From the NCBI GenBank assembly GCA_011371305.1, contig DRQW01000165.1, positions 1 through 37,764 of the forward strand: a stretch of 37,764 nucleotides of DNA, read 5' to 3'. Positions within the stretch are counted from its first letter, which is position 1. Each line of letters starts with the position of its first letter. Positions 1-37,708 of this stretch are shown one piece after another. A program made the position numbers and the translations under genes. The stretch is from Anaerolineae bacterium (GTDB lineage Bacteria > Chloroflexota > Anaerolineae > J102). Under the pieces are notes generated by a model that saw nothing but the letters and a program-made list of their open reading frames with translations, made no database searches and was not told the origin of the DNA.

Positions 1-244
1 CGGGAAACCGGTAGACCGGTAGACCGGGGTGAGCGAATCGGCCCGGTTTCCCTGGTTTCCTGGTTTCCAGGTGTACCGGGTTACCGCCCACGATTTTCGT
101 CCGTATCGGCGCTGGCAAGCCAGCCGTTGGACTGCTTTGAAAATACATGTCTCACGCCAAGGCGCCAAGGGCGCAAAGGAAATTAGGTGGCGATTTTCAT
201 CGGTATCGGCGCGCGGCCGCGCGTGGTGCCTGTTCTCAAAATCG
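1..244. repeat. Mosaic palindromic repeat, truncated by window start: octamer palindrome (1-80), hairpin module M (93-144), nonamer array (153-179), module M variant (191-244)
   Basis: GGGAAACC/GGTAGACC octamers are followed by GGTTTCCC/GGTTTCCT octamers, and 1-144 aligns with 22696-22850. 191-244 is bounded by CGATTTT...AAAATCG. Confidence 0.85.
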
Positions 245-253
245 CGATTGGAT

Positions 254-1942
254 TTATGATTTCACCCGGATGCCACCCTCCTCATAAGTGAAAATCCATC
301 CTGTCAGATCGCCCGGCACGATGTGATCTTTCACGTTTCCGGTGGCTGGGTCCACAAAAACACGGTAGAATCGCGAGGAGTATAAACCGCCATCGGCCTG
401 CAGTTGCGCCTCGGTGACCTCGCGAATTCGTCGGATGCGTTCCTGCCAATGGGCCATATTCGCGGGTGTGAGGTCCACCCAGCCATCCTCCGCGTTGTCC
501 GCTTTGATCTCCGGCCCGCGCAGCAGTTTCTCGCCATCCGGCGTGAGGATGGGGATGCCGATGGAGATGATGTGGGAGCGGAGTCGGGCGTCGGAAGCAA
601 TACGTTCGAACGCGGCCTGAGCCAAATCTTCAGGAGACATAGCCAGGGCCCGGGTCATGCTGTCGCCCGTGATCAGCTTCAGAAGGTAGGCTTCGTACAA
701 GAGCTTGGAAAGCCGGGGCGGTCCTAAAATCTCAAAAGCAATGCTCTCCACATCGTGCTCCTGTTCCAGATGCCGCATGCGGGCTAACGCGCCTTCTCGT
801 AGCACGCCTGCGCGGTACGTGGGCCCCAACACCGATTGATCCAGCGCACTGATGATGTCGAAGCCTGTGTTCCCGCCCTGAATTTCCATGATGATATAGT
901 GTGCGATCTCTTCGGGCGTTACAAATTCCATCTGGTTGAGGGAAGTAATGGTGGAAAATTCCTGCAAGGCAAAGAGCCCGTTTTCGCCGGTATCGACATA
1001 AACATTTTTCAGTACTTCGCCCGTGGGTTGCCCAAAAACACCGTTGTCGGCCAGGGCTTCTTCCAGCGGCACAGCATCGTCGGGCGGGCAGTCGTAGAGC
1101 TCGATGGCACGGCCTCTGCGCTTGATGGGGCCATAGCCGATCTCTGCCCAGCCAATGGCCGCGGTGGGCTTGATCTCTTTGATGACCTTACGGGTGGGTG
1201 GCGTGCGGGCCAGTAGGAACATGAGCATGCTATGGCCACCCGCCAGCGCGGATTTGGAAAGCAGCATGGCCGAGGGTTTCTCTTCGCCGTGGGTATAGGG
1301 GATGTTCAATCCCATGCCGCCCGTGCCGCTGGTGCCCACCTTAATGTAAACGCGTACGCCGTTCCAATGCGCGCTCTCGAACTTCATGACTTCATTCAAA
1401 ATCTGGATATGGCGCACCAGGTGGGGAATGTAGGTGCGTAGCACGTGCTTTTCGGCCATCTCCAAATGTTTCGCCGGGTCAGGGTCCTGCATCGTCTCCA
1501 GCAATTCATAGCTGCTGGCGTAGATGTTCTGGTAAGCGAACGCGGTGGCCGTGTTGATGCAATCGATGATGCCGTCGGGTTCATATTGGCGCACGAAGCG
1601 GGCCAGGGTGTTGTTTTCCAGGATGGCTTGTTTACGTTCTCCAACCATGGGGTCCAACAGATCCGCCAGTAGGCGTTTGCGAATTTCCCCATCCGCCAAC
1701 ATCTCCTCCCACCGCATATCCTTATATTCCCAGGGCACAAAGATATTTCCCCAACAGGCGTGCACGCGGGTGCCTTCGGGCGCTTCTCGGGCCAGCATAG
1801 CCGCGGTCTCTTCTGCGCTGACCTGATCAATCGAAGCAATGATGAGATGGGCCGGACGATATCGTAAAAGCTGACGGGAAATCGCCTTACCGACCTGTCC
1901 GGCCCCTCCGAGGATTAGAAAATTTCTCCCTTGTATCTCCAT
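254..1942 (-). CDS. Uncharacterised NAD(P)-binding Rossmann-fold (SDR/KR-like) protein, 562 aa
   Basis: N-terminal ILGGAGQVG dinucleotide-binding motif; GGAGG SD upstream on the - strand; long ORF. Substrate not recognisable. Confidence 0.8.
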   Translation of the reverse strand: MEIQGRNFLILGGAGQVGKAISRQLLRYRPAHLIIASIDQVSAEETAAMLAREAPEGTRVHACWGNIFVPWEYKDMRWEEMLADGEIRKRLLADLLDPMVGERKQAILENNTLARFVRQYEPDGIIDCINTATAFAYQNIYASSYELLETMQDPDPAKHLEMAEKHVLRTYIPHLVRHIQILNEVMKFESAHWNGVRVYIKVGTSGTGGMGLNIPYTHGEEKPSAMLLSKSALAGGHSMLMFLLARTPPTRKVIKEIKPTAAIGWAEIGYGPIKRRGRAIELYDCPPDDAVPLEEALADNGVFGQPTGEVLKNVYVDTGENGLFALQEFSTITSLNQMEFVTPEEIAHYIIMEIQGGNTGFDIISALDQSVLGPTYRAGVLREGALARMRHLEQEHDVESIAFEILGPPRLSKLLYEAYLLKLITGDSMTRALAMSPEDLAQAAFERIASDARLRSHIISIGIPILTPDGEKLLRGPEIKADNAEDGWVDLTPANMAHWQERIRRIREVTEAQLQADGGLYSSRFYRVFVDPATGNVKDHIVPGDLTGWIFTYEEGGIRVKS

Positions 1943-2295
1943 GTGTCAGTCCTCCATTGGACGAGTTAGGTGGGTGGGGATACGTGTGGACATATGATAT
2001 CATGAGCGATGGAACCAGGGCTATTTTTCGCCTTTCCTGTCCCATGCTTTCGTAGCATAGTTCAAAAGAAATCAGGCGCCACGCGCTTTGGGGCGGTTTT
2101 ACAGGAGTGATGACCGAGCTGTTGCTCCTTTTCACCAATTCCCTTTTCGAGAACATTCAATACCCTGCTACTTTCCCTCTTGTTTGCCTGGTTGTTGGAT
2201 TCTTCAGTGGGAAAACTGGCGATTTTTCTTTTTCTCTGCTTAAACGTTCAGCAGAAGGGTTACGACGGTGATTTTTGTGGCACGGGGGTAAGCCC

Positions 2296-2324
2296 TTGAC
2301 AAGGTACGTGGCATGGCTTACATT
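2296..2324 (+). promoter_or_regulatory. Sigma70-type promoter for the ABC exporter operon
   Basis: TTGACA (2296-2301), 17 bp, TACATT (2319-2324). Confidence 0.7.
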
Positions 2325-2368
2325 GTGAACAACGACATCATTTGCGTTTCCCCAGAAGGAGTTTATCC

Positions 2369-3241
2369 ATGCCCGTCATCGAAACCCGGCAACTCACCAA
2401 ATACTACGGCAAGGCCCGAGGCATCGTTGACGTCTCCTTGCAGGTGGAGGAGGGGGAGATCTTCGGTTTCATCGGGCCTAACGGCGCGGGCAAAACTACC
2501 ACCATCCGTTTGCTGCTGGGACTCATCTTTCCTACCCGGGGCGAGGCTCGCATCTTCGGCAAGGACGCGATCAAGGACGGGCCTGAAATCCGGCGCCACA
2601 TCGGCTATCTTCCCTCGGAGGTCTTCTACTACGAGGGCATGAAGGTCATCGACCTGCTCAAATACGCGGCTAGCTTCTACCCGGGCGACCACACCAAGCG
2701 CCTGCACGAGCTGGCCGAGTACATGGAACTGGACCTGCACCGCAAGATCGAAGACCTTTCGTATGGGAACCGGAAGAAGGTAGGGATTGTGCAAGGGCTG
2801 CTCCATCGCCCCAAGCTGGTGTTCCTGGACGAACCCACCCTGGGCCTGGATCCACTGATGCAGCGCAAATTCTTTGACCTGATCCGCGAGGAGAACGCTC
2901 GCGGGGTCACGGTCTTCTTCTCCTCCCACATCTTGGGCGAGGTGCAGCGGTTGTGCCAGCGGGTGGGCATCATCAAAGAAGGGCAGCTCATCGAGGTGTC
3001 GGACATCCGCACCCTGCAACAGAACAACTACAAGCGTATCTATGTCGCGGCCCGCGAGATACCGTCCGGCTATTTCGATCGTCCTGGCGTGACCAATCTG
3101 GAGGCGGTCAATGGCGGCGTGCGTTTCTTCTACAAAGGGGATATCGACGCCATCGTCGCCCGCATCAGCGCCCTGGACCTCATCGACGTCACTATCGAAG
3201 AGCCCACCCTGGAAGAAATTTTCATGCACTACTACGAATAG
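2369..3241 (+). CDS. ABC-2 type exporter ATP-binding subunit
   Basis: Walker A GPNGAGKTT, signature-like LSYGN, Walker B VFLDEPT, H-loop SSH. AAGGAG SD precedes ATG 2369, which is preferred over the TTG at 2342. Confidence 0.95.
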   Translation: MPVIETRQLTKYYGKARGIVDVSLQVEEGEIFGFIGPNGAGKTTTIRLLLGLIFPTRGEARIFGKDAIKDGPEIRRHIGYLPSEVFYYEGMKVIDLLKYAASFYPGDHTKRLHELAEYMELDLHRKIEDLSYGNRKKVGIVQGLLHRPKLVFLDEPTLGLDPLMQRKFFDLIREENARGVTVFFSSHILGEVQRLCQRVGIIKEGQLIEVSDIRTLQQNNYKRIYVAAREIPSGYFDRPGVTNLEAVNGGVRFFYKGDIDAIVARISALDLIDVTIEEPTLEEIFMHYYE

Positions 3242-3290
3242 CCGTTAGCAGCGGCGGCCCCGCACGGCAGCATAGCGCAGGGTGTCAAAT

Positions 3291-3380
3291 GCGTAATCCG
3301 TATTCCGTATTGCGTGGCGATCGAACGGAATACGAAATACGCAATGCGAACTTTGTCACCTCGCCCCACATTGGCTTGGA
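3291..3380. repeat. Heptamer palindrome (CGTATTC/CGTATTG ... GAATACG/AAATACG) with conserved right flank
   Basis: Tandem heptamers on both arms in inverted orientation; flank CTCGCCCCACATTGGCTT resembles 30694-30711. Confidence 0.8.
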
Positions 3381-3410
3381 GTCGCTCTCACGAACTAGCC
3401 CAACGACATC

Positions 3411-4220
3411 ATGAACACAAACATCTTCCAATTCGAACTACGGATGAAGCTGAAGTCCGCGCTGACTTGGTCCATCGCTGTGGTGGCGGTGAGTCTCATC
3501 TACCTGGGGCTGTATCCCTCCCTGGCGCAGGAGGCCGACCTGTTGGAACAGGCGATCCGCCAATTCCCGCCCCAATTCCTGCAGGCCTTTGGGATGCAGC
3601 ATTTTCATCTTGACACCATCATGGGCTTTTACAGCTTTGTGTTCCTGTTCATCCAGGTATTGTTAGCGGTGCAGGCTTCCATGTACGGAGTTGGGTTGGT
3701 GTCGGTGGATGAGGCGGAATTTACCGCGGATTTCCTGCTTACCCGACCCGTGACCCGCGGCCAAATCCTCACCAGCAAATTCCTGGCCTCGTTCGTCGTT
3801 CTCACCCTTACCAACGCGGTGGTGTGGGTCAGCTCCCTGGCCTTTCTGGAACTGTTCGACGCGGGCCGGGGCTACGACCAGCACGCAGTCATCCTGCTAC
3901 TCAGCAGCATTGTTCTCTTTCAGCTCTTCTTCCTCACCGCGGGCGCGGCCATCTCTCTGCTGGTGAAGCGGGTCCGTAGCGTCACGCCCTACGCCCTGGC
4001 TCTGGCTTTCGGCATGTATCTGCTGGGCGCGTTCAGCGGCATGTTGGGTGACGTCAAACTGGAGCTAATCACGCCCTTCAAGCACTTTGATCCCAACGCT
4101 ATTATCGAGAACGACGCCTGGGATCCCTCCCTGGTCGCCATTAGCATCGCCGTCATCCTGATCTCCATAGCCATCACCTACTGGCGATACCTCCATCGCG
4201 ACATCCCCGCGGTGGCGTGA
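3411..4220 (+). CDS. ABC-2 family permease subunit
   Basis: About 6 hydrophobic segments; DEAEFTADFLLTRPVTRGQILTSKF loop; ITPFKHFD motif. Confidence 0.92.
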   Translation: MNTNIFQFELRMKLKSALTWSIAVVAVSLIYLGLYPSLAQEADLLEQAIRQFPPQFLQAFGMQHFHLDTIMGFYSFVFLFIQVLLAVQASMYGVGLVSVDEAEFTADFLLTRPVTRGQILTSKFLASFVVLTLTNAVVWVSSLAFLELFDAGRGYDQHAVILLLSSIVLFQLFFLTAGAAISLLVKRVRSVTPYALALAFGMYLLGAFSGMLGDVKLELITPFKHFDPNAIIENDAWDPSLVAISIAVILISIAITYWRYLHRDIPAVA

Positions 4221-4227
4221 GAGGGAT

Positions 4228-4346
4228 CTCACGCAGAGACGCTAAGTCGCCAAGGGACTAGGGTTTGCTGGTGGCAGGTGAACGACTTCCTGCCAGAAGC
4301 CCTTGCCACTTGCGACTTGCAAACCTGCTTAGCGGCTTGGCGTGAG
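4228..4346. repeat. Nested palindrome: outer nonamer arms around inner GCAGGTG/CACTTGC-type heptamer arms
   Basis: Ends CTCACGC...GCGTGAG; the inner part is an inverted homologue of 34167-34245. Confidence 0.8.
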
Positions 4347-4363
4347 CCAAAAGGAGCCGTCGT

Positions 4364-5158: not shown

Positions 5159-5177
5159 AGTTTGGGTAACGCGGCCC

Positions 5178-5206
5178 TTGACAAGTCATCAATTGTCTTC
5201 TATACT
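5178..5206 (+). promoter_or_regulatory. Sigma70-type promoter of the GntR/amino-sugar operon
   Basis: TTGACA (5178-5183), 17 bp, TATACT (5201-5206). Confidence 0.85.
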
Positions 5207-5219
5207 GGTATAGACCACT
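5204..5219. promoter_or_regulatory. dre-like operator (NagR/DasR-type)
   Basis: ACTGGTATAGACCACT is close to the DasR/NagR dre consensus A(G/C)TGGTCTAGACCA(G/C)T and overlaps the -10 box and start site. Confidence 0.8.
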
Positions 5220-5258
5220 GAACCACTAGACCGATTTTTCCCATTTCCGGTGGCCGCG

Positions 5259-12667: not shown

Positions 12668-12808
12668 CAATTGCAGATATCTTCGCCCCGTTGTGGGCGA
12701 CCGGGGGAAGTCCGGTGAAAATCCGGCGCTGTCCCGCAACTGTGAGAGCTTCGGCTCAAGCCAGATCGCCCGGCACAGGCGCAGCTTTCTGCGAGGCACA
12801 GAGGCTGC
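12668..12808 (+). ncRNA. Cobalamin riboswitch (short form)
   Basis: GGGAAGTCCGGTGAAAATCCGGCGCTGTCCCGCAACTGTGA core and AGCCAGA B12-box half, directly upstream of cob genes. Boundaries approximate. Confidence 0.92.
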
Positions 12809-12830
12809 GAACGTTTCCTTTGCCCGACAT

Positions 12831-14001: not shown

Positions 14002-14170
14002 GGTCATCAGCGTCCACGTTAGGCGAAGCGCTAACGGGCGTAAAACGTGATGCGTGAGACGTGAGGGGCTCATGCATCACCCATTGCGCATCACGAAATC
14101 GGCTGATGACCATATAGCCGCAAGTCATTCTCATCGGTAACGGCGAGTCAGCGCTCGTGTCGCCTGCCGA
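14002..14170. repeat. Heptamer palindrome element with 10-bp terminal inverted repeats (14002-14111) plus a module M copy (14127-14170)
   Basis: GGTCATCAGC...GCTGATGACC ends; the interior aligns with 22879-22969; 14127-14170 aligns with 193-232. Confidence 0.8.
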
Positions 14171-20749: not shown

Positions 20750-20812
20750 GGCGTGAGACGTGATGCGTGAAACGTAAGGACTTTACCGCATCACGCATCA
20801 CGTTTCACGTCG
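20750..20812. repeat. Heptamer palindrome (CGTGAGA/CGTGATG/CGTGAAA ... CATCACG/TTTCACG)
   Basis: Same units as 22912-22969; lies between convergent genes. Confidence 0.85.
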
Positions 20813-21576: not shown

Positions 21577-22485
21577 TTACTTTCTTCTCCCCAATTCACT
21601 GGCATAGGCCCGGCCCAGATCGTGGGCGTGTGTCCGGGCCCAGTCGGTGAGCCGCGTTGTCCCCGCGGGCGGGGCATCGGCATAGAGCAGGTCATCCATC
21701 AATGCCTGCACCTCTTCCCAGGTGAGGAACACATCCCGCTGCCATTTCCCAATGGCCCAGGCTACCATATAGCCCAAACGCGGGGGAACGGAGATGATGG
21801 GACGAGGTTTGCCGATGATCTCGCCGAGGGTGCGGACCAGTTCCCGGTAGGTGAAGGTCTCAGGCCCGATTGCGTCGATAATCACGTTTTCGCGGGCTTC
21901 GCCCTGGGCTACGGCCAGGTCCGCGAAGTCCTCAACATAGATGGGTTGTAGGCGATAGTGGCCATCACCGAAGACGCCGATGATGGGAAAACGGCGTAGG
22001 GCCCAAGCGATGTTGTTGATGAGGATGTCCTCTGGGCCGAAGATGACGCCCGGGCGCAGGATGGCGTAGGAAATGCCTGTGGATTTGAGTGCTTCCTCCA
22101 CCTGGGCTTTGCCCCGATAATAGCCGTAGGGGGAGTCGAGGGAGGGGTTGAGGATGCTGGTGTGGACGATGCGCTCGACTCCTGCGGCGCGGGCGGCCTC
22201 GAATAACGTTCGGGAGTTGCGCACGGCCTGGTCGAAGGTGAAGGTTTTGTAGTTGAAGCGCACCCAGTAGGTGTTGTACAAGACAGTCACCCCGCGCAGG
22301 GTCGCGACCAGGCGGTCGGGCTGGTCCCAGTGGAAAGGATAGGCCCGCACCTGGCCGTGGAAGGGATCCGGTTTGTGGGTGGAATTCGTGAGGGTGATGA
22401 CGTGATGGCCGCGGGCAAGCAGGCGTTGGGCGATGTATTTTCCGGTGTAGCCAAACGCACCGGTGACAGCATGGAGTTCGGACAT
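21577..22485 (-). CDS. NAD-dependent epimerase/dehydratase family (atypical SDR, NDUFA9-like)
   Basis: VTGAFGYTG, YYRGK (YxxxK), ILRPGVIFG and QPIYVED motifs. Confidence 0.9.
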   Translation of the reverse strand: MSELHAVTGAFGYTGKYIAQRLLARGHHVITLTNSTHKPDPFHGQVRAYPFHWDQPDRLVATLRGVTVLYNTYWVRFNYKTFTFDQAVRNSRTLFEAARAAGVERIVHTSILNPSLDSPYGYYRGKAQVEEALKSTGISYAILRPGVIFGPEDILINNIAWALRRFPIIGVFGDGHYRLQPIYVEDFADLAVAQGEARENVIIDAIGPETFTYRELVRTLGEIIGKPRPIISVPPRLGYMVAWAIGKWQRDVFLTWEEVQALMDDLLYADAPPAGTTRLTDWARTHAHDLGRAYASELGRRK

Positions 22486-22665
22486 GGGGAAGTCAGTGAG
22501 TTTGCGCCTAAGGCTGCACCTTCGGGCTTTGGATTATCAAGCCTCTTCGGATCTATTTCAATAGCTTATTGTATCACATCCTGGCGACGGTTTTTATTCC
22601 AAATTTTTTCCCAAATATCCCAAATTTTATCCCAAATCATGGAACGGGTGCTTGGTCCGGTTGAG

Positions 22666-23002
22666 GCCTGCTTTGAAAATAGATTTCGGTAGACCGGGAA
22701 ACCGGGTAGACCAGTAGACCGGGTGGAGGAGCGAATCGGCCCGGTTTCCCTGGTTTCCGGGTTTCCTGGTTTACCGGTTACGGGGCTGCACAGCCCGCCA
22801 TTTTCATCCGTATCGGCGCAGGCGAGCCTGCCATCGGACTGCTATGAAAACAGGATTCGGATCAGGATTAGGATTGAAGTCGTCAGGATAACGTTGAGCG
22901 AGGCGCCAACGGGCGTGAAACGTGATGCGTGAAACGTGAGGACTTACGCATCACGCATGACGCATTACGGCGTCGGCTTCCTCCGCCACCTTGGCCGCAA
23001 GG
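22666..23002 (+). repeat. Mosaic repeat copy A (~335 bp): octamer palindrome, small hairpin, module M, AGGATT hexamers, heptamer palindrome
   Basis: Colinear and highly similar to the reverse complement of 37381-37708; the 5' part also matches 1-144. Confidence 0.92.
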
Positions 23003-23095
23003 TGGGCAGGTGGCAGGTCAAATGGCGCAATCCACCTGCCACCTGCCACTTGCAAACTTGCAAACCTGACTTGGCACCTTGACGCCTTGGCGTGC
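22994..23095. repeat. GCAGGTG/CACCTGC/CACTTGC heptamer palindrome followed by a nonamer arm
   Basis: Same architecture as 4228-4346. The nonamer arm 23070-23094 is the near reverse complement of 153-179. Confidence 0.8.
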
Positions 23096-27965: not shown

Positions 27966-27971
27966 ACCCTC

Positions 27972-29197: not shown

Positions 29198-29280
29198 TGT
29201 GAAACGTGATGCGTAATGCGTAAGGTTTTCACGTTTCACGTTTTCACGCATCACGTGGCTTGCCGCCACCCCCAAGGTTG
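29198..29280. repeat. Heptamer palindrome (CGTGATG/CGTAATG ... TTTCACG/CATCACG) with GGCTTGCCGCCACC flank
   Basis: Same units as copies A and B; the flank resembles 22975-22990. Confidence 0.82.
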
Positions 29281-29325: not shown

Positions 29326-29847
29326 ATGCACCGCTTTGCCAACGACCATCCCAACATCACCGGCGTGGTCCTCGCCCTCGTCCTGTTCGGCGCCTTGATC
29401 CTGACCGGGGTCACTTTCTTCCTGCCCGAAATCGCCAGCGCCCTGAATATCGGCCCTGCGCCCGACCGCTCCTGGACGCCGGCCGTGACGCCCACGCCCA
29501 CCTTCACCCCCACCCCCTCACTCCCGCCCGTCACCCCCACTCCCACCATCAACCTGCCACCTGACTTGCCCACGCCCCCGCCCGGTCAGTGGACCTTCCA
29601 GCCGGGGGACGTGGCGGTGAACGTGAACAACGGGCCCGTCAATCTGCGCAAAACCCCGGGCTACAAAGGCAAACCGCCCAGCGACCGCATCGCCCTGGTG
29701 CCCGCGGGCGCAAGGGTGCGCATCCTCCACGGCCCCGCCCTGGCCGATGACCTGGTGTGGTGGTATGTGGACTGGAACGGGCGTCGAGGCTGGATGGCCG
29801 AAACCCGGGCCAGTGGCGTGCCCATGTTAAAAAAGACTCAAGATTAA
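29326..29847 (+). CDS. Membrane-anchored protein with a Pro/Thr linker and a bacterial SH3 domain
   Basis: N-terminal TM helix, TPTPT linker and VNLRKTPG...ILHGP...WWYV...GWMAE. Confidence 0.85.
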   Translation: MHRFANDHPNITGVVLALVLFGALILTGVTFFLPEIASALNIGPAPDRSWTPAVTPTPTFTPTPSLPPVTPTPTINLPPDLPTPPPGQWTFQPGDVAVNVNNGPVNLRKTPGYKGKPPSDRIALVPAGARVRILHGPALADDLVWWYVDWNGRRGWMAETRASGVPMLKKTQD

Positions 29848-29897
29848 AGACTAAAGACCGTCGATTACTGCTCACTGATTACTGACGAGGAGCCCTT

Positions 29898-30572
29898 ATG
29901 CCCGTCGAAACCCTTTCTCCATCCCTCACCCTCACCGAATCGGGCCTGTTGCTTTTGCCAGGCCATGCCCCCTTGCAAACCATCGTCGAGGCAGAAAACG
30001 CCCCCGCCCTGCTGAAACAGGTCCTGAAACGCAGCTATACCTGGCAGGAGCGCAACGACGTCAGCATTCGACAGGCCGCGCTCTCGCCCGACCGCGGGCC
30101 CCTTTGGGCCGCGGCGCTCATGGCCTGGGACGCCCAGGCCCTGTTCGAAGGGGGTGACACCGTTCCCTATGTGGCTTATTTCCGTCGCACGGCCCGCGGC
30201 CAGGGCCGCATGACCGGGTTACTCATCCCGCCCGAGGCCGACAACCGGCGCTGGGGCGTGGCCGAAGTCGCGCGCACCAAGCGCGACACGCCCATCGTGG
30301 CCGCGGTAGCCGTGGTCGATTTCGATGGCCATCGGGTGACCGCGGCCCGGGTGGCCCTGACGGGCGCCTGGAAACGCACCGCGGACCTGGCCCAGGCCCC
30401 CGCCCGGCTGGCGGGCCAGCCCCTCACGCCCGAAGCCATCGACGCGGTGGCCCAAGCCATCGCCGCCGAAGCCGATCCCCGGCCCAACTTCCTGGGCTCG
30501 GTCGCATACCGCCGGGCCATGGCCGAGGTGTTGAGCCGGGACGCGCTGCTGAAGTGTTTGAAATCAAACTAG
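29898..30572 (+). CDS. Truncated/divergent FAD-subunit homologue of xanthine dehydrogenase-family enzymes (YgfM/CoxM-like)
   Basis: C-terminal ARVALTG and NFLGSVAYRRAMAEVL motifs; GAGGAG SD; directly upstream of the Mo subunit. Confidence 0.75.
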   Translation: MPVETLSPSLTLTESGLLLLPGHAPLQTIVEAENAPALLKQVLKRSYTWQERNDVSIRQAALSPDRGPLWAAALMAWDAQALFEGGDTVPYVAYFRRTARGQGRMTGLLIPPEADNRRWGVAEVARTKRDTPIVAAVAVVDFDGHRVTAARVALTGAWKRTADLAQAPARLAGQPLTPEAIDAVAQAIAAEADPRPNFLGSVAYRRAMAEVLSRDALLKCLKSN

Positions 30573-30592
30573 TGATTGCCAAAATCGAAGCT

Positions 30593-30719
30593 GGCGCGGG
30601 AAGCCGATCTCATATTCCGTATTGCGTATTGCGTATTCCGTATTGCGTGACGGCTGGACGGAATACGCAATACGAAGTACGCATCATTGCAGACTCGCCC
30701 AACCTTGGCTTTGATGACC
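30593..30719. repeat. Heptamer palindrome (CGTATTG/CGTATTC ... GAATACG/CAATACG) inside the shared scaffold
   Basis: Left flank GGCGCGGGAAGCCGA is identical to 37396-37410; the right flank resembles 37481-37505. Confidence 0.85.
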
Positions 30720-30760
30720 TTCTGCGACCAGCGATCATTTTTCATAACAGGAGATCATCC

Positions 30761-33679
30761 ATGCGTGGCACTCCCACCCAAATCACCCTCACCGTCAACG
30801 GCCAGCAGCAGACCTGGACCGTAGGACAACGCGATTCCCTGGCTCAGGCCCTGCGCGACCATCAACTTTACAGCGTCAAACTCGGTTGCGATACCGGCGA
30901 CTGCGGCATCTGCACCGTGTTGGTGGATGGGAACCCTGTGCGCAGTTGCATGGTGCGGGCCGTCGAGGTGGATGGCAAGGAGGTATTCACCACCGAAGGC
31001 CTGGCCCAGGGCGGCGAACTTCATCCTATCCAGCAGGCGTTCATCGAAGTAGGCGCGGCCCAATGCGGCTTCTGCACCCCGGGCATTCTCATGGCCACCA
31101 AAGCCCTCCTCGACCGCAATCCCAATCCCACCGCGGAGGAGGTGCGCGAGGCCACGGCCGGGGTTTACTGCCGCTGCACGGGCTATGTGCGCACCACCCA
31201 CGGCGTGCTGCAGGCCGCGAAGAAACTGCGCGGGGAGGAGACCGGGCCGCTGCAACCCATCCGCTTCAAACTCACCGACGAAGACAGCATCGACGACATC
31301 GAGCTGCCCGAGCCCTTCCATCGTCGGGATAACGACGTGCACCCCCTGCCGCCGGTGGTCATCACCCCGCCCGACATGCCGGAGACCACGGTCGTGGGCG
31401 CGCCCGAGATCAAGGTGGACGCGCGCAAGCTCATCCTCGGGCGGCCTGTGTACGCCTTCGACAAATACGTGGAAGGCATGCTCTACGGCGCCATCCTCAC
31501 CAGCCCCCACGCCCACGCCCGCATCCTCGATATCGACACCAGCGAGGCCGAAGCGTTGCCCGGCGTCCATGCCGTTCTCACCTACAAAAACGTGCCCCGG
31601 GTCAAACACGCCACCGGCGGCCAGAGCCCGCCCCAGCCACCGCCCTACGACCAGGTCATGTTCGACAACAAGGTGCGGCATGTAGGCGATCGGGTGGCTG
31701 CCGTGGCCGCAGAAACACCCGAACTGGCCAAAAAAGCCCTGCGCCTGATCAAGGTCCAATACGAAGTGCTGCCCCACGTCATCGACCCGATGGAGGCCAT
31801 GCAGCCGGGCGCGCCCGTCATCCACGATGAAGATGACACCGTGGGCATCTACGATCCCCAGCGCAACATCGTCCATCACATCGAAGCCGAGGTGGGCGAT
31901 GTGGACGCGGCCTTCGCCGAGGCCGACTTTATCTACGAAGGCGAATACTACACGCCCAAACAACAGCACGCCCACCTGGAACCCCACGTCACCATCACCT
32001 GGTGGGACGAGAACGACCGCCTGGTCATCTATACCTCCACCCAGGTGCCCTTCCACCTGCGCCGCATCGTCGCACCCCTCATCGGCATCGATCCCAAGCG
32101 AATTCGCGTGATCAAACCGCGCACGGGCGGCGGCTTTGGCAACAAGCAGGAAATGATCCTGGAGGATGTGTGCGCCATGCTCACCGTGCGCACCGGTCGT
32201 CCCGTGCGTCTCGAATTCACCCGCACCGACGAGTTTTATTCCACCCGCAGCGCCCATCCCAACATCGTGCGCTACAAAGTGGGCGTGAAGGGCGACATCG
32301 TCACCGCGGCCGAACTCTACCTGGTGGGCGACACGGGCGCGTACGGCACCCACGGCCTCACCGTGCAGATGGTGGGCGGCCTCAAGGGCCTGTCGCTTTA
32401 CAATCCCCCCAACGCCCGCTTCATCTCCGACGTGGTCTATACCAACCAGCCGCCCACAGGCGCATTCCGCGGCTACGGCGCCACCCAGGCCCAGTTCGGC
32501 TTCGAGGTGATCATGGAGGAGATCGCGGAAAAGCTGGGCCTGGATGTGGTCGAATTCAAGGGCAAGAACGTGCTCAAAGTCGGGGAGCCCATGCATCTGG
32601 CCGAGAAGCTGGGCGAGGGCCGGGAAGGCTATCCCCAGGATCTGACCACCAGCGCCCTGGCCGAATGCACCCGCATCGGGCTGGAGGCCACCGATTTCTA
32701 TGCCAAGCGCAAAGCCTACGCCAAACAGACGGGCCGCTACCGCAAGGGCATCGGCTTCGCCAACACCATGCACGGGTCCGGCATCGCGGGCCTGGACATG
32801 GCCGCGGCCACCATCAAGATGTGGGATGACGGCACCTTCTTCCTCACCGTAGGCGCCACCGACATCGGCACCGGCTCCGACACCATCCTCGCCCAGATCG
32901 CGGCCGAAGTCCTGGGCGTCCCCCTGGCAGATATCGTCATCTATTCCTCTGACACCGACTTCACGCCCTACGACACGGGCGCGTACGCCAGCTCCACCAC
33001 CTACATCAGCGGCGGCGCGGTGCGCAAGGCCGCGCTCAAGGTGCGCCAGCAGATTTTGGAGTTCGCCGCGCTCATGTGGGAGCTGGATTCCACCGAGGGC
33101 CTGGAGCTGCGGGACCGCAAGGTCATCGCGCCCGATGGCCGCGAGCTCACCCTGTGGGACATCGGCATGACCAGCACCCACCAGATGGAGCAGCGCCAGA
33201 TCATGGCCACGGCCTCCCACATGAGCTACGTCAGCCCGCCCCCCGCGGCCGCGTCCTTCGCCGAGGTCACGGTGGATACCTGGACCGGCCAGGTGACGGT
33301 GGACCGCTTCTTCGTGGCCGCGGACATCGGCCGGGTGATCAATCCGGTGACGGCCGCGGGCCAGATCGAAGGGGGTGTGCTCCAGGCCATGGGTTTTGTC
33401 ATGGCCGAAGAAATGGTATTCGACGAGAAGGGAAGGCTGGTCAACGCCAACCTCAAGGACTATCATCCCTATCTGGCGGATGAAGCGCCTCCCATCGATG
33501 TGGTGTTCGTGGAGACCAACGAGGGCACCGGTCCCTTCGGCGCCAAATCGGTGGCCGAGCTGGCCATGGACGGCGCCGCGCCCGCGATCGTCAGCGCGGT
33601 GCACAACGCCACGGGCGTGTGGGTGCGCAAGCTGCCCCTCTATCCCGAGCGGGTGTGGAGGGCGATTCAGGGCGAATAA
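30761..33679 (+). CDS. Xanthine dehydrogenase-family molybdoenzyme with fused 2x[2Fe-2S] and Mo-binding subunit (XdhD-like)
   Basis: GCDTGDCGIC, QCGFCTPG, CRCTGY, GGGFGNK, AFRGYG, GQIEGG and GAKSVAE motifs; AGGAG SD before ATG 30761. Confidence 0.93.
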   Translation: MRGTPTQITLTVNGQQQTWTVGQRDSLAQALRDHQLYSVKLGCDTGDCGICTVLVDGNPVRSCMVRAVEVDGKEVFTTEGLAQGGELHPIQQAFIEVGAAQCGFCTPGILMATKALLDRNPNPTAEEVREATAGVYCRCTGYVRTTHGVLQAAKKLRGEETGPLQPIRFKLTDEDSIDDIELPEPFHRRDNDVHPLPPVVITPPDMPETTVVGAPEIKVDARKLILGRPVYAFDKYVEGMLYGAILTSPHAHARILDIDTSEAEALPGVHAVLTYKNVPRVKHATGGQSPPQPPPYDQVMFDNKVRHVGDRVAAVAAETPELAKKALRLIKVQYEVLPHVIDPMEAMQPGAPVIHDEDDTVGIYDPQRNIVHHIEAEVGDVDAAFAEADFIYEGEYYTPKQQHAHLEPHVTITWWDENDRLVIYTSTQVPFHLRRIVAPLIGIDPKRIRVIKPRTGGGFGNKQEMILEDVCAMLTVRTGRPVRLEFTRTDEFYSTRSAHPNIVRYKVGVKGDIVTAAELYLVGDTGAYGTHGLTVQMVGGLKGLSLYNPPNARFISDVVYTNQPPTGAFRGYGATQAQFGFEVIMEEIAEKLGLDVVEFKGKNVLKVGEPMHLAEKLGEGREGYPQDLTTSALAECTRIGLEATDFYAKRKAYAKQTGRYRKGIGFANTMHGSGIAGLDMAAATIKMWDDGTFFLTVGATDIGTGSDTILAQIAAEVLGVPLADIVIYSSDTDFTPYDTGAYASSTTYISGGAVRKAALKVRQQILEFAALMWELDSTEGLELRDRKVIAPDGRELTLWDIGMTSTHQMEQRQIMATASHMSYVSPPPAAASFAEVTVDTWTGQVTVDRFFVAADIGRVINPVTAAGQIEGGVLQAMGFVMAEEMVFDEKGRLVNANLKDYHPYLADEAPPIDVVFVETNEGTGPFGAKSVAELAMDGAAPAIVSAVHNATGVWVRKLPLYPERVWRAIQGE

Positions 33680-33730
33680 GCCCTCTGATTCTTCCCACAA
33701 ACCGAAAAACGATCTTGTATCCTCTCTCGC

Positions 33731-33850
33731 TTGACCGACTTTACGCCCGAATACCGCCTGCGTGTGGGCGATTACCGCATCCTCTTCGAAGTTGAGGAAG
33801 ACCAAATCGTGATTTATCGTGTTCGCCATCGCAAGGATGTATACCGGTAG
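33731..33850 (+). pseudogene. C-terminal fragment of a RelE/StbE-family toxin
   Basis: Manual translation [39 protein letters not shown]; the N-terminal half is missing. Confidence 0.85.
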
Positions 33851-33898
33851 CAACTATCGGGCGATCATGCTTTTCTCAACATAGTGAAGTTTACGCTT

Positions 33899-34095
33899 GT
33901 GATCGATATCAAACCTCAATAAAAAAGAAGGGCGCAAGGAATTTGTGATTTTGACCTACGAAGATTTTTTGAAGGTCCAACAGGCACTGGAAGATTACGA
34001 AGACCTGAAAGCTTTGCGCGAAGCAAAAAGAAGCAGAAAAAGACGCCCCTACCACCTCCCATGAAGAACTGAAGGCCTTGTTTGGCATGGAGTAA
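33899..34095 (+). pseudogene. Frameshifted type II antitoxin
   Basis: Reconstructs as MIDIKPQ / KKEGRKEFVILTYEDFLKVQQALEDYEDLKALREAK / EAEKDAPTTSHEELKALFGME*, with frame breaks near 33920 and 34029. Confidence 0.75.
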
Positions 34096-34136
34096 ACTGC
34101 GGTTACGAATTCACAACTGCCTCCAACACATCATCT

Positions 34137-34277
34137 GCCACGAAGGCTCAAAGGAACGAAGCCAATGCAGGTTTGCAAGTCGCAAGTGACAAGGCAAGTT
34201 CTTCTGACGGCGACGTTTTTCCCCTGCCACTTGCCACCTGCCACTTCTCTCCTTCGTGTCGTCCTGTCTTCGTGGTT
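34137..34277. repeat. Nested palindrome: nonamer outer arms (CCACGAAG...CTTCGTGG) and GCAAGT/ACTTGC-type heptamer inner arms
   Basis: The inner part is an inverted homologue of 4263-4328; the outer arms differ in sequence from the 4228-4346 copy but still pair. Confidence 0.82.
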
Positions 34278-34379
34278 TTTGCCTTGCTATGAGAAGGGAC
34301 GTGGATAGTTACACGTTTTTTACGTTATAATCTGGTTGACAGCAACGCAAGCAAACTGTGAGAAATAAGGAGAAACATC

Positions 34380-34649
34380 ATGACGATTGAAAAAATCCTT
34401 GCAGATATCCATGCTTTGGAAGAAGAGCTCTTGGCCTTCGAACGAAAATACGGTATTCGTTCGGAAACTTTCTATGCCGCTTACATGAGTGGTGAAGAGC
34501 CTGAAGACGAAAGTTGGGTGCTGGATTTTGGTGAATGGGCCAGCGTCTACCGCACTTGGCTGGCGCGCCAGGCGGATTATCGCAATGAAATCCAGCGGTT
34601 ACAGCGGAACTCAACCAGCATCAAAGGATTGATTCGGGTTGCAGCATGA
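34380..34649 (+). CDS. Small acidic protein, probable antitoxin (TumA-like partner of DUF6516)
   Basis: AAGGAG SD; L..FERKYG..SETFY....SG.....DFGEW pattern; ATGA overlap with the next gene; TATAAT at 34326-34331. Confidence 0.75.
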   Translation: MTIEKILADIHALEEELLAFERKYGIRSETFYAAYMSGEEPEDESWVLDFGEWASVYRTWLARQADYRNEIQRLQRNSTSIKGLIRVAA

Positions 34650-35083
34650 ATCCGTTAGCTAGGCCCGAAGATTATGAACTGTTTTTATATACGTTGACGG
34701 AGCGATATCCCTCGATTCAGCGCTCGACTGTGATTTTTGTTCGCAGGGGCGCAACGTTGGCGCGAGTGTCAGGCGAACTGGTATTTGACCACGGCTTTCG
34801 ATTAGTGATTCGTGAACGTCTGGTATTCCATCGATTACCCGGTGTGATAGACTGGTATGGTTATGAGATCTGGCGCGGAAACGAAAAACTATGCTGGTAC
34901 GACCCACAACCTCATCCCGACGATCCACACTTGCAAGCCACACATCCCCATCATAAACATATTCGGCCAAATATCAAACATAATCGCATTCCCGCGCCAG
35001 AAATGAGTTTTCATCGACCGAACATCCCTTTTCTTATCGAGGAAATCGAACAGCTGATAGCTTCCCCCTCAATGCTGAAATAA
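34646..35083 (+). CDS. DUF6516-like (TumE-type) putative toxin
   Basis: YGYE...WYDPQPH...THPHHKH motif; two-gene TA-like layout. Family recognised from memory, not by search. Confidence 0.78.
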   Translation: MNPLARPEDYELFLYTLTERYPSIQRSTVIFVRRGATLARVSGELVFDHGFRLVIRERLVFHRLPGVIDWYGYEIWRGNEKLCWYDPQPHPDDPHLQATHPHHKHIRPNIKHNRIPAPEMSFHRPNIPFLIEEIEQLIASPSMLK

Positions 35084-35110
35084 CAACCAGCCCCCTCCCC
35101 TATCCTCCAT

Positions 35111-35179
35111 GCGTCAAACGTCGGATGACGCTTTCCAGAAATAACCATTCTGGGCGCGCTTTGACGTTTGACGCTTGAC
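35111..35179. repeat. Heptamer palindrome (GCGTCAAACGTC ... GACGTTTGACGC) with internal CCAGAA/TTCTGG stem
   Basis: 12-bp perfectly complementary arms built from CGTCAAA-type units. Confidence 0.78.
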
Positions 35180-35190
35180 TTTTTACCCCC

Positions 35191-37308
35191 ATGAATCTCG
35201 CCATCATCTGGCACATGCACCAGCCCCTCTACCGCCAGCCGGGCAGCGATGTGGCCATCCTGCCCTGGGTGCGGCTGCACGCGGTCAAGGATTACCTGCA
35301 CATGGCCCAAGTCCTGGCCGCGCACCCGGACATGCGCGCCACCTTCACCCTGACGCCCTCGCTGGCCGAGCAACTGGAGGATTACGCGGCCGGGCGGCTG
35401 GTGGATCGGCTCATGCAGCTCGCGGATCGGGCCTGGTTTAGTCCGGATGAGAAGCGCTATCTGCTGGACATGTGCTTCAGCATCAACCCCGCCATCATCG
35501 CCCAATACCCGCCCTACCAGGCCATCCTCGACCGCCGTCACCTGGCCCGCCTCAATCCCGACTACTTCTCCGCCCAGACCTACCGCGACCTGCTGGTGTG
35601 GTTCAACCTGGCCTGGACCGACCCCAACCTGCTGGAGCGGGATGATTTCCTGGCCGGGCTGGTGCAAAAAGGCCGGGACTTCACCCCGTCCGAGGCCCGG
35701 GGGCTCATGGAAAAACATCGGGAGATCATGGGCCAGGTCCTGCCCACGTATCGGGCATTGGCGGAAAAAGGGCAGTTGGAGCTCATCACCGTGCCCTTCT
35801 ACCATCCCATCCTGCCCCTGCTGGTGGATAGCCGCATCGCCCAACGCCCCAGCCCCGGCCTGCCCATCCCCGATCCCCCTTTCCGTGCGCCCGAGGATGC
35901 CGAGGCGCAGATCCGCTGGGCGGTGGAGAAACACACACGGCTGATGGGCGAGAAGCCCGTGGGCATGTGGCCCAGCGAGGGCGCGGTCGCGCCCGAGATC
36001 CTGCCCCTGGCCGCGGCCGCGGGCCTGACCTGGCTGGCCACGGACGAAGCCATCCTGGGCGAAAGCCTGGGCATCTATTTCGAGCGGGATGAGACGGGCC
36101 TGGTCCGCCGCGGAGACCTGCTCTACCATCCCTGGCGGGTCGCCACACCCCAGGGCGACCTGGCCATCCTCTTCCGCGACCATGACCTCTCCGACCGCAT
36201 CGGGTTCGTCTATCAGCACCTGCCCGCGGCCCAGGCCGCGGAGGACATGATCGTTCGGCTGGAGCGCATCGCCCGGGCCTTTGGCAACCGCGAGGACGGG
36301 CTGATCACCATCATCCTCGATGGCGAAAACGCCTGGGAATACTACGAGCACAACGGCGATCCCTTCCTGCACGAGCTTTACACCCGTCTCACCGCCCACC
36401 CCCACCTGACGCCCGTCCTCCCCAGCCAGCATCTGGCCCAGCATCCCCCCACCGACACCCTGGAGCGCCTGGCCTCAGGAAGTTGGATCCTGGGCGACTT
36501 TACCACCTGGATGGGCGACCCGGAGCATCTGGTCGCCTGGTCCCGGCTGCGCGACCTGCGGGACGCTTACGCCGCCTGGGTGGAGGAAACCCGGCCCGAG
36601 CCCGCGCAGTTGCACCTCGTTCAGCATCACCTCTTCGCGGCCGAGGGATCCGACTGGTTCTGGTGGTATTCCCACCGCAACAGCAGCGCCCAGGACGCGC
36701 TCTTCGACCAGCTCTTCCGCGACTACCTGGCCGCGGCCTACCGGGCCATGGATATCCTCCCGCCCGAAGCACTGGCCCAGCCCATCACCGGCATGGCCCA
36801 GCAGCCCCCGCCGCCCCGCCATTTCCTCACCCCCCGCCTCACCGCCTCCCCCGATCCCTCCCGATATTGGGCCGACGCCCAAGTCATCCGCCCGGACATC
36901 TCCACCGGTGCCATGCAGCAGGCGGGGAGCCTGGTGCAGGCCGTGCGCTATGCCAACGATGCGGACCATCTGTACCTGCGGCTGGAATTGAGCGTGCCAC
37001 TAGCTCGCTTCGCCCTGGAGATGCACCTGCGTACAGCGGGAGGAGCCTATCTGCTGCGGTTGGGCCGGGATCAAACCACCGCGTTCCTGATGCGTCTGGA
37101 AAATGGCTCCGAGGTGAATGTGGGGCCTGTACGATGCGCGTTGGGGGAAAAGCTGGCGGAATTTGCCATCCCGCTGGGGACGTTGGCTATCGATCTGGGG
37201 CAGATGACCACGGTCTTTCTTCATCTCACCCTGACCGGTACGGCAGGCGACGTGGTCCGCTTTCCGCATACGGGCGAAGTCGCGTTGGAATTAGCCCAAG
37301 GAACATAA
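35191..37308 (+). CDS. Glycoside hydrolase family 57 (amylopullulanase-like)
   Basis: WHMHQP, PFYHPILPL, GMWPSEG (nucleophile), LDGENAWE (acid/base) and AEGSDWFWW conserved regions. Confidence 0.94.
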   Translation: MNLAIIWHMHQPLYRQPGSDVAILPWVRLHAVKDYLHMAQVLAAHPDMRATFTLTPSLAEQLEDYAAGRLVDRLMQLADRAWFSPDEKRYLLDMCFSINPAIIAQYPPYQAILDRRHLARLNPDYFSAQTYRDLLVWFNLAWTDPNLLERDDFLAGLVQKGRDFTPSEARGLMEKHREIMGQVLPTYRALAEKGQLELITVPFYHPILPLLVDSRIAQRPSPGLPIPDPPFRAPEDAEAQIRWAVEKHTRLMGEKPVGMWPSEGAVAPEILPLAAAAGLTWLATDEAILGESLGIYFERDETGLVRRGDLLYHPWRVATPQGDLAILFRDHDLSDRIGFVYQHLPAAQAAEDMIVRLERIARAFGNREDGLITIILDGENAWEYYEHNGDPFLHELYTRLTAHPHLTPVLPSQHLAQHPPTDTLERLASGSWILGDFTTWMGDPEHLVAWSRLRDLRDAYAAWVEETRPEPAQLHLVQHHLFAAEGSDWFWWYSHRNSSAQDALFDQLFRDYLAAAYRAMDILPPEALAQPITGMAQQPPPPRHFLTPRLTASPDPSRYWADAQVIRPDISTGAMQQAGSLVQAVRYANDADHLYLRLELSVPLARFALEMHLRTAGGAYLLRLGRDQTTAFLMRLENGSEVNVGPVRCALGEKLAEFAIPLGTLAIDLGQMTTVFLHLTLTGTAGDVVRFPHTGEVALELAQGT

Positions 37309-37311
37309 CGT

Positions 37312-37340
37312 TTGTCAGGCCACGCGGGGACAGGTATAAT
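37312..37340 (+). promoter_or_regulatory. Sigma70-type promoter firing into mosaic repeat copy B
   Basis: TTGTCA (37312-37317), 17 bp, TATAAT (37335-37340). Confidence 0.75.
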
Positions 37341-37380
37341 GGCAAGGGATACGAGACGGCTCGCTGATGCCGATGACCAC

Positions 37381-37708
37381 GCCTCGCGCCACGTGGGCGC
37401 GGGAAGCCGACGCCGTAATGCGTCATGCGTGATGCGTAAGTCCTCACGTTTCACGCATCACGTGTCACGCCCGTTGGCGCCTCGCTCAACGTTGTCCTGA
37501 CGACCTCCATCCTAATCCTGATCCGAATCCTATTTTCATAGCAGTCCAACGGCGGGCCACCCCGTGCCGATACGGATAAAAATGGCGGGCTGTGCAGCCC
37601 CGTAACCGGTAAACCAGGAAACCCGGAAACCAGGGAAACCGGGCCAATCTGCTCCCCCTCCCGGTCTACCGGCCTACTGGTTTCCCGGTCTACCAATTTC
37701 AAAGCAGG
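37381..37708 (-). repeat. Mosaic repeat copy B (inverted relative to copy A)
   Basis: Reverse complement aligns with 22666-23002 across all modules. Confidence 0.92.

Follow-up and report, generated by a model that had tools for sequence, protein, structure and literature searches.

Contig DRQW01000165.1, from the genome of an Anaerolineae bacterium, carries in about a dozen of its intergenic spacers palindromes whose arms are arrays of short tandem repeats, which raises the question of what these elements are and how they came to be there. The original prediction, made from the contig itself, held them to be a non-autonomous family serviced by an enzyme encoded elsewhere, and possibly an undescribed system. 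Our analysis leads to a more specific answer: the high-copy modules are probably derivatives of an insertion sequence (IS) of the IS110 family, comparable to MITEs (miniature inverted-repeat transposable elements), whose cargo is a tandem-repeat hairpin that may vary by slippage. Throughout, the window is the whole stretch of DNA analyzed, namely, the entire 37.8-kb contig (37,764 nucleotides; C165) of a 2.17-Mb metagenome-assembled genome with 213 contigs, 72% completeness, and 60% G+C.

Tandem-arm palindromes in the window and its genome

The nearest relatives of the SucD protein encoded in the window come from Caldilineales/Anaerolineae metagenome-assembled genomes in the Chloroflexota (top match 97% identical), and the DNA runs that contain the window sequence are labelled as hydrothermal vent metagenomes. 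The genes of the window are ordinary and encode ABC transporters, cobalamin salvage, SucCD, a DEAD-box helicase, ComEC, and a GH57 enzyme. Tandem Repeats Finder (TRF) returned 55 rows for the window, nearly all of period 6-9 and within the flagged spacers. All 12 spacers were read, and the claimed order of array, spacer, and inverted array was found in 11 of them. The order is clear at 1-107, 3291-3380, 20750-20812, 22666-23095, 29198-29280, 30593-30719, and 37381-37708, and degenerate at 14002-14170 and at 35111-35179, where the left arm is reduced to two units. Nesting, which had also been claimed, is present at 4228-4346, 22976-23095, and 34137-34277, each with an inner heptamer hairpin inside outer octamer arms. 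The twelfth spacer, flagged as weak from the beginning, contains two direct, non-complementary arrays and no palindrome. The tandem-arm palindromes are real.

The arrays are abundant throughout the genome and lie mainly between genes. TRF gave 593 rows of period 7 and 421 of period 8, of which 472 (80%) and 353 (84%), respectively, fall outside called genes, compared with 37 of 218 for period 6 and 58 of 309 for period 9; these figures are somewhat inflated because the gene calls come from an in-house program based on codon usage, which overlooks some true genes. The area outside these crude calls is 379,973 bases, or 18% of the genome. The non-genic rows used for comparison with simulated DNA numbered 453 (period 7) and 350 (period 8), versus 5, 8, and 6 and 4, 6, and 6 in three first-order Markov simulations; compared with such DNA, the sequence outside genes is about 60 times richer in these arrays, far more than chance would give. 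Nor are they confined to the window, as a 441-base composite matches 10 of the 11 genomes of the same genus and 16 of the 18 of the same family. The repeats match no described family in Rfam at the gathering score, where the only hit in the window is an adenosylcobalamin (AdoCbl) riboswitch, and the segment 22560-23130 returned only sub-threshold look-alikes of microRNA hairpins.

Pairs of heptamer arrays no more than 60 nt apart are predominantly inverted in the genome as a whole (128 inverted, 3 direct, and 33 unrelated). The arms mostly consist of three to four units, with the longest having about 8-11, and the median loop is 9-18 nt. The genome uses 103 different heptamer units. Dominant units include the CGTATTG/C, CGTGATG/CGTAATG, GCAGGTG/GCAAGTG, ACTGAAC, GGTAGACC, GGAAACC, and CTTGCAAA types, together with AGGATT hexamers.

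Units with common ends and variable cargo

Most of the high-copy modules belong to one superfamily of units with defined boundaries. Along a 179-bp CGTATTG-type unit, the number of BLAST hits jumps from 15 to 78 at the first base and drops from 62 to at most 28 past the last, and when about 100 copies were laid out, hairpins of quite different units were found between a common pair of ends. A unit opens with a small GC hairpin (h1); next come about 40 nt of left end that start with the left terminus, GATACSGAYGAAAAT, then the cargo, which is a tandem-arm hairpin, and last about 20 nt of right end, which closes with TTTTCAWARCAG. The units are 125-200 bp in size, and the cargo of these mini-units is a foldback hairpin of 60-130 nt. 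Searches with regular expressions found 219 matches to the left terminus and 215 to the right in the genome; left and right are 125-149 nt apart in 58 pairs, which carry octamer cargo, and 150-199 nt apart in 29, which carry heptamer cargo, so that 87 of the 103 pairs tabulated fall between 125 and 199 nt. With a cover of at least 60%, BLAST found 141 copies of the A-type module and 97, 57, 19, and 99 copies of four others, only 7 of the 413 lying inside called genes; the true copy numbers are higher because many copies sit at contig edges. As a separate observation on the assembly, both ends of the window contig fall in repeat units, as do contig edges at 66 of the 141 A-type matches, and the repeats are a main cause of the assembly breaks and probably of the 72% completeness.

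The h1 hairpin, 22-24 nt long and directly upstream of the left terminus, varies in its stem by compensating changes (GCTGGC/GCCAGC, GCGGG/CCCGC, CGCGCG/CGCGCG, and CGAGC/GCTCG), and a folding energy of -6 kcal/mol or lower was reached by 139 of 208 copies, versus 34 of 170 control 24-mers. Chaining of the units is directional. Adjacent termini (no more than 60 nt apart) stand head to tail in 63 of 65 cases, with a right end followed by a left end on the same strand, and the gap is exactly 24 nt in 51 of these 63 junctions. Furthermore, the last 12 nt of the right end (TTTTCAWARCAG) are present 21-25 nt upstream of 56 of the 139 left termini that had looked isolated. The two-unit chain of the type seen at 22668-22995 and 37381-37707 has about 10 copies in the genome. 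The two ends of a unit share an imperfect inverted match of about 9 nt (GAAAAT.. / ..ATTTTC), and ahead of the units stands a stretch of 12 nt that matches the right end directly.

An IS110-family element bounded by the same ends

When metagenome contigs were searched for the left end, 68 stretches matched. On one metagenome contig (L173), the left and right ends lie 1603 nt apart and enclose a non-coding leader of about 250 nt and an open reading frame (ORF) of 444 amino acids that matches DEDD_Tnp_IS110 (PF01548, 2.6e-28) and Transposase_20 (PF02371, 7.4e-27). This contig contains two tandem IS copies, one complete and one cut by the contig end, in which the stop codon abuts the right terminus, followed by 24 nt with h1, the left terminus, the leader of about 250 nt, and the ATG of the next copy. 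A homologue with 79% amino acid identity and the same layout occurs within the genus of the window (G007:C548; L180), where the order is the right end of a mini-unit, a 22-nt h1, left end, leader, ORF, and a right end adjoining unique DNA. In a sister genus of the same family (G432; L195), a truncated copy retains h1 and the left terminus. The IS is thus about 1.6 kb long, with a recombinase of 440-444 amino acids, and it shares some 40 nt at the left end and 20 nt at the right with the mini-units in the L173, G007, and G432 copies. In the IS copies of G007 and L173, the sequence ..CAG stands before h1 and is found once more at the end of the right terminus, as in 55 of 57 chained units. Because these termini bound an IS110-family element in L173, in G007, and in part in G432, we read the mini-units as IS110-derived rather than as repetitive extragenic palindromic (REP) sequences.

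The leaders of the three IS copies are 84% identical by column. In all three, an internal segment of the leader repeats the copy's own junction of right end and h1, and where the copies differ at the junction, the leader segment differs to match. RNAalifold predicts a leader closed by an 8-bp stem around two domains, with one compensatory pair among the three sequences. These features make the leader a candidate guide RNA.

Distribution and occupancy of orthologous sites

The left terminus is restricted to the lineage of the window. An exact 15-nt match occurs 131 times in the window genome and 0, 36, 45, 126, and 140 times in five congeners; among 400 other Chloroflexota genomes, 13 have one or two matches, which is chance level, as a reversed control gave a similar result. 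No match to a 21-nt left-terminus pattern was found in viral contigs. The comparison of orthologous spacers that had been proposed as a check revealed empty sites in congeners at several positions. For example, the 169-nt spacer at 3241-3411, filled in the window by an E-type hairpin, is 5-10 nt long in four congeners. At the 4228-4346 spacer, two congeners have a different heptamer hairpin (GTCCAAC/GTTGGAC). Downstream of the helicase gene, there are 14 nt in G011, a simple outer octamer hairpin in G008 and G004, and a nested hairpin plus a two-unit chain in the window. Downstream of sucD, nine related loci have a plain GC hairpin with a T-run, and a tandem-arm hairpin, different in each case, is found in the window, L009, and L012. 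The repeats reach 100-1000 times the contig depth of the unique flanking genes in four vent metagenomes. These contigs are short and break at the repeats, and the use made of them was limited to this depth contrast and a single 7-nt insertion described below.

The units are thus genome-wide, dispersed, non-coding, and variably present at orthologous sites, and a matching IS exists outside the window genome, all of which supports the proposal of a non-autonomous family whose enzyme is encoded elsewhere. The further proposal of an undescribed system does not stand, as IS110 elements with MITE-like derivatives are a described class, exemplified by ISPpu9 and MITEPpu9. In a neighboring case, downstream of the GH57 gene in G008 (C323; L208), arrays of TCTGRCCC-type octamers and runs of GGGAAT-type hexamers occur where the window has its chain of C-type and A-type units.

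A possible route of spread

The mini-units are probably internally deleted or replaced derivatives of the IS110-family element. By analogy with IS621 and ISPpu9, they may be mobilized in trans. The recombinase, with an RNA guide derived from the leader, would excise units as circles, and these would go back into DNA at an AG preceded by sequence similar to the right end of the unit itself. If resident right ends are the preferred targets, head-to-tail chains with a fixed 24-nt joint would be the expected product, and the h1 variants of the mini-units (among them those starting TCCGA.., GCACC.., and GTCAA..) would match IS subfamilies with different donor guides. The cargo arms, with three to four (up to about 11) tandem 7- or 8-mers, may have arisen and varied by replication slippage in hairpin-forming sequence, in which case their complementarity would be inherited from the founder of a family rather than maintained copy by copy. 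Unit number differs between copies of one family, and a contig from a related population (run X4) has one extra 7-nt unit at 29839, seen in a single contig at a depth below 5. The stand-alone hairpins of this lineage may predate their IS110-derived carriers.

Weighing the origin of the units and of their arms

Several findings weigh against an IS110 derivation, or limit how much it explains. The matching IS is absent from the assembled contigs of the window genome by tblastn, which detected there a distant fragment on C168 (35% identity) and an unrelated IS110 gene on C51 (27%); this genome is 72% complete, and its assembly breaks at repeats. Only three IS copies have readable left ends, one of them truncated, and the leader has no match in Rfam. 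A clean empty target for the 37381-37707 chain was not recovered in the five congeners searched, in which synteny downstream of GH57 is lost. Of the 167 inverted pairs called by TRF, both termini lie within 200 nt in 36 cases and just one does in 66, including 23 at contig edges; the other 65 (39%) have no terminus at that distance. The congener without left termini (G005) nonetheless has 35 rows of period 7 or 8 in a 176-kb sample, mostly from one octamer family of the CACRAAGR type, with a single inverted pair by TRF. Finally, the arms provide no support for copy-level selection or correction of pairing: native arms pair at -1.17 to -1.22 kcal/mol per nt, versus -1.27 to -1.34 for swapped arms, under a normalization that favors the swapped ones. 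The IS110 link therefore accounts for the ends, the chaining, and the spread of the units; it does not explain the tandem-arm build, because octamer arrays persist in G005 without left termini.

Several candidates for an autonomous copy were rejected. The C51 gene (G000:C51:3499-4500), which is the only IS110-family gene assembled in the window genome (a single DEDD_Tnp_IS110 hit), shares just the 27% identity noted above with the L173 protein and has no termini in its flanks by eye. In L178, termini 1619 nt apart belong to two units that flank an ordinary membrane-protein gene. Two other IS110 homologues, a fragment in G430 (66% identity) and one in G437 (37%), lack termini by regular expression, and the same type of search found no left/right pair 350-4000 nt apart in the window genome. 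Profiles for OrfB_IS605 (TnpB), DDE_Tnp_1, and rve gave no hits in this 72% complete genome.

A possible, if somewhat doubtful, account of what is left over is that the hairpins without termini arise in place, by slippage beside a seed hairpin combined with intrastrand template switching, and were later captured by IS110 units. The 65 of 167 pairs without a terminus, the G005 octamer arrays, and the graded series at the helicase site, from empty through simple octamer to nested hairpin, all fit this idea, as do the ACTGAAC-type hairpins, which share their unit at several loci and have unrelated loops and flanks. Heptamer repeats have been reported as over-represented in many bacteria, for which slippage has been proposed (PMC4692102). 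Conversely, local events that are independent of each other would not be expected to place one unit at many unlinked loci, and some of the hairpins scored as having no terminus are probably decayed units, because the regular expressions were strict and missed degenerate right ends.

A broader suggestion, which we regard as unlikely, is that the tandem-arm palindromes form a class of their own, in effect palindromic microsatellites with units of 7-8 nt, which a lineage-specific process generates or maintains and which the IS110 units picked up and amplified. Candidate processes are hairpin-templated copying of slipped arrays and selection for RNA or DNA hairpins that can be melted, unit by unit, by a binding protein. 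The architecture is found even in a congener that has none of the IS110 termini, and it returns with one unit at loci whose loops and flanks are unrelated. If true, this would mark an undescribed mechanism common to the heptamer arrays of cyanobacteria and Beggiatoaceae.

It is less likely still that the hairpins are primarily RNA or DNA structures selected by the host, such as terminators, 3'-end stabilizers, operon punctuation, or sites for a protein that binds one unit, with spread being secondary. The occurrence at the 3' end of sucD of classic terminators at nine related loci and of tandem-arm hairpins in the window, L009, and L012 would suit such a role, and so would two intra-operon spacers that have different tandem-arm hairpins in different congeners. 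Divergent spacers are about twofold under-used, with 9 of 102 placed hairpins versus 20% of spacer length, and one strand of the octamer hairpin has G-U pairs that make its fold about 23 kcal/mol more stable than that of the other. In addition, a cold-shock protein reportedly binds heptamer repeats with one protein per unit (PMC4679880). Against this, the form of an intrinsic terminator, a GC hairpin followed directly by a T-run, is rare, with at least four T within 14 nt at only 12 of the 107 hairpin ends examined (those at 20812 and 35183 are among the cases). Orientation relative to flanking genes is near random, with 24 sense and 21 antisense for E-type hairpins and 16 and 30 for A-type, a weak bias. 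The units also appear dispensable, because one congener lacks left termini and many orthologous sites are empty; their pairing shows no copy-level compensation, and their sequences are too diverse for one binding protein.

Spread by the Y1/HUH transposases associated with REPs (RAYTs), with h1 and the adjacent GTATC as the REP and the remainder as a mosaic like bacterial interspersed mosaic elements (BIMEs), is very improbable: although h1 is a 22-24 nt GC hairpin with compensating stem changes, Y1_Tnp genes occur in 9 of 11 congeners, REPs form mosaics, and a GTAG family is known in a Chloroflexi species (PMC3733652), the window genome has no Y1_Tnp hit by Pfam at 72% completeness, none of the 10 Y1 loci fetched, among 66 matches listed in relatives, has the termini, the sequence beside h1 is ..CGCC|GATAC (reading GTATC on the opposite strand), with neither GTAG nor CGTC, the units run head to tail in 63 of 65 cases when most REP dimers are arranged head to head or tail to tail (PMC3733652), and it is an IS110 element that bears the termini. 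The RAYT/HUH transposases, which the original prediction had listed among the gene families to test, therefore do not fit. The Y1 genes of the relatives have repeats of their own. In G006 (C199; L097), two tandem Y1 genes are each bracketed by different, GTAG-type REPs, which also counts against a RAYT origin of the units here. In G027 (C30; L096) and G025 (C111; L093), Y1 genes are flanked by tandem 13-14-mers in inverted arrays, an unrelated case of tandem palindromes.

Features of the window

The repeat features are listed in Table 1. Contigs of X2 and X3 that join across 34160-34251 have high depth and short sides, as do joints that connect different hairpins; all of these may come from other loci or organisms and were not used.

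Table 1. Repeat units, hairpins, and arrays of the window, by position
Feature	Coordinates	Strand	Parts and context	Basis
Octamer-arm A-type unit, cut at contig start	1..107	-	Arms: GGTAGACC-type 7-27, GGTTTCC-type 45-72; left terminus 94-107	TRF + reading
24-nt junction with h1 (GCTGGC/GCCAGC variant)	108..131	-	Connects left terminus to right terminus of next unit	
Short unit	132..242	-	Right-terminus-like end 132-146; single CGCCAAGG octamer array 155-179; left terminus 194-207; then second h1 208-230 (CGCGCG variant) and right-terminus-like stretch 231-242	
Decayed CGTATTG-type (E-type) hairpin	3291..3380	+	Right-hand module; termini not recognizable	TRF + reading
Nested hairpin without termini	4228..4346	undefined	Outer CGCNAAGN/CTTNGCG octamers; inner GCAGGTG/CTTGCCA heptamers	
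Degenerate CGTGATG-type hairpin	14020..14110		cobT-cobS spacer	By eye; no TRF row with score of at least 30
CGTGATG-type hairpin	20765..20812		Downstream of sucD; followed by TTTTT	TRF + reading
Complete A-type unit	22668..22814	-	Left terminus 22801-22814; octamer-arm hairpin 22688-22779; right terminus 22668-22682	
24-nt junction with h1 (GCAGGC/GCCTGC variant)	22815..22838	-	Joins two head-to-tail units	
C-type unit without outer left terminus	22839..22995	-	Inner part of left module present; right terminus 22839-22853; AGGATT hexamer run 22852-22875; linker; CGTGATG heptamer hairpin 22913-22969	
Remnant of nested D-type hairpin	22996..23095	-	GCAGGTG heptamers; CTTGCAAA and CCTTGGCG octamers	
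CGTGATG/CGTAATG-type hairpin without termini	29198..29280		Divergent-gene spacer	TRF + reading
Two direct unpaired heptamer arrays	29832..29885	+	AAAGACT x3.9, GATTACT x3.3; end 12 nt before ATG 29898	
E-type unit	30593..30750	+	CGTATTG arms 30613-30648 and 30658-30683; right terminus 30736-30750; left terminus unrecognizable	
Nested hairpin	34137..34277		Outer CACGAAGG-type octamers; inner GCAAGTG/TGCCACT heptamers	TRF + reading
CGTCAAA/TTTGACG hairpin	35111..35183		Small inner hairpin; followed by TTTTT; between TumE-like and GH57 genes	
Inverted copy (89% identical) of the 22668-22995 two-unit chain	37381..37707	+	C-type unit with right terminus 37530-37544; h1 junction 37545-37568; A-type left terminus 37569-37583 and right end 37694-37707; ATG of following gene at 37718	

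The window has other features besides the units. The AdoCbl riboswitch (RF01482, 59.6 bits) lies at 12688-12812 (+), about 100 nt upstream of cobT-cobS-cbiZ-cobD. A 12-mer, TTTTATCCCAAA, is repeated about four times at 22592-22637, between the A-type unit and the start of an epimerase-family gene at 22485 (-), and might be a promoter-region or operator array. At 34380-35083 (+), an 89-amino-acid ORF with no Pfam hit overlaps the start of a 145-amino-acid ORF with a TumE toxin domain; this pair, which is flanked by two tandem-arm hairpins, is likely a toxin-antitoxin pair. Two ORFs of more than 1000 amino acids overlap on opposite strands at 30554-33679 (+) and 30755-33853 (-); the minus-strand ORF has no Pfam hit, and the codon-usage caller favors the plus-strand ORF.

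Comparison with known systems

Like REP, BIME, and REPIN sequences, the units are abundant, almost wholly extragenic, and lineage-specific, have small GC hairpins, form mosaic clusters, and are possible IS targets (PMC3733652, PMC3116915). Unlike REPs and REPINs, they have no GTAG or CGTC tag, stand head to tail, show no RAYT association, and are 125-200 bp long with IS110 ends; their stems comprise at least 21-28 nt of tandem repeats, versus 5-13 bp in REPs (PMC3733652, PMC3116915).

Heptamer direct repeats differ from the arrays described here, in which octamers are as common as heptamers and most copies ride in units that appear to be IS110-derived. The short tandemly repeated repetitive (STRR) sequences of cyanobacteria are heptamer direct repeats of the same sort. 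Direct repeats of the TAACTGA heptamer are described from Beggiatoaceae, where they stand upstream of start codons, and from cyanobacteria and Bacteroidetes (PMC4679880), and heptamer simple sequence repeats have been reported in Xanthomonas and Nostoc (PMC4692102). As in those cases, the arrays here are intergenic, occur at many loci with unrelated flanks, and differ in length and sequence between close relatives at a given site. The ACTGA core of the TAACTGA repeats recurs here in the ACTGATT and ACTGAAC types, and the GATTACT array (29863-29885), whose unit has this core too, ends 12 nt before an ATG. The arrangement differs, however, as a Beggiatoa genome has 169 direct sets and 1 inverted (PMC4679880), whereas the window genome has 128 inverted and 3 direct.

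Foldback elements of eukaryotes offer a likeness of form only, with no relatedness implied. Drosophila FB is a foldback transposon of this form. In the Foldback-like transposon Galileo, direct tandem repeats make up part of the long inverted arms and add to their length (PMC4168063), and, as with the units here, many copies lack a transposase gene. Unlike these units, Galileo is eukaryotic and kilobase-scale, with a P-superfamily transposase and target-site duplications. ERIC and Correia/NEMIS elements are imperfect palindromes of 100-200 bp in transcribed spacers that are present or absent at orthologous sites; unlike the units here, they have stems of unique sequence, no IS110 ends, and no head-to-tail chains. 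Both are named as bacterial intergenic repeats in PMC3116915. A literature search, with ISfinder and article supplements outside its scope, found no account of such elements in Chloroflexota and none of bacterial repeats with tandem-repeat arms. We know of no description in bacteria of foldback hairpins with tandem-repeat arms, some of them nested at two periods.

The closest parallel is ISPpu9, an IS110-family element of Pseudomonas putida KT2440 that has AG on both sides and inserts in REPs, together with its MITE-like derivative MITEPpu9, eight copies of which lie behind the transposase gene or alone and which moves in modules (PMC12288879). IS110-family elements are excised as circles and inserted site-specifically, guided by a structured RNA from the non-coding end, with a conserved dinucleotide at the joints, and they typically have neither terminal inverted repeats nor target-site duplications (PMC12288879); these last two features do not discriminate between readings here, because IS110 elements typically lack both. 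The likeness to ISPpu9, which was drawn from element layout, includes a long non-coding leader, a non-coding derivative with IS-like left and right regions that lies either straight behind the transposase gene or alone, AG on both sides, and small palindromic repeats as the places into or beside which insertion occurs. Modules also travel in combination, as in MITEPpu9, the two-unit chain here occurring about 10 times in the genome. Unlike the eight copies of MITEPpu9, there are 219 left-terminus matches here (131 exact), and 126-140 exact ones in two congeners; the cargo is a tandem-arm foldback hairpin in several unit dialects, whereas that of MITEPpu9 is a small RNA gene, and the units here are as a rule chained head to tail with a constant joint of 24 nt.

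IS110 recombinases are RNA-guided "bridge" recombinases under development for genome editing (PMC12288879). Their natural non-autonomous passengers are barely documented, and the hundreds of copies per genome found here, in directional chains and in several variants of end and hairpin, offer a data set on minimal donor ends, on covariation of guide and donor, and on the shaping of spacers in hydrothermal-vent Chloroflexota. The tandem-arm hairpins may also be connected with the intergenic heptamer arrays of other phyla, which have long lacked an explanation. Set beside the systems above, what is known is an IS110 element with MITE-like passengers; what is new is the scale, the chaining, and the foldback cargo with tandem-repeat arms.

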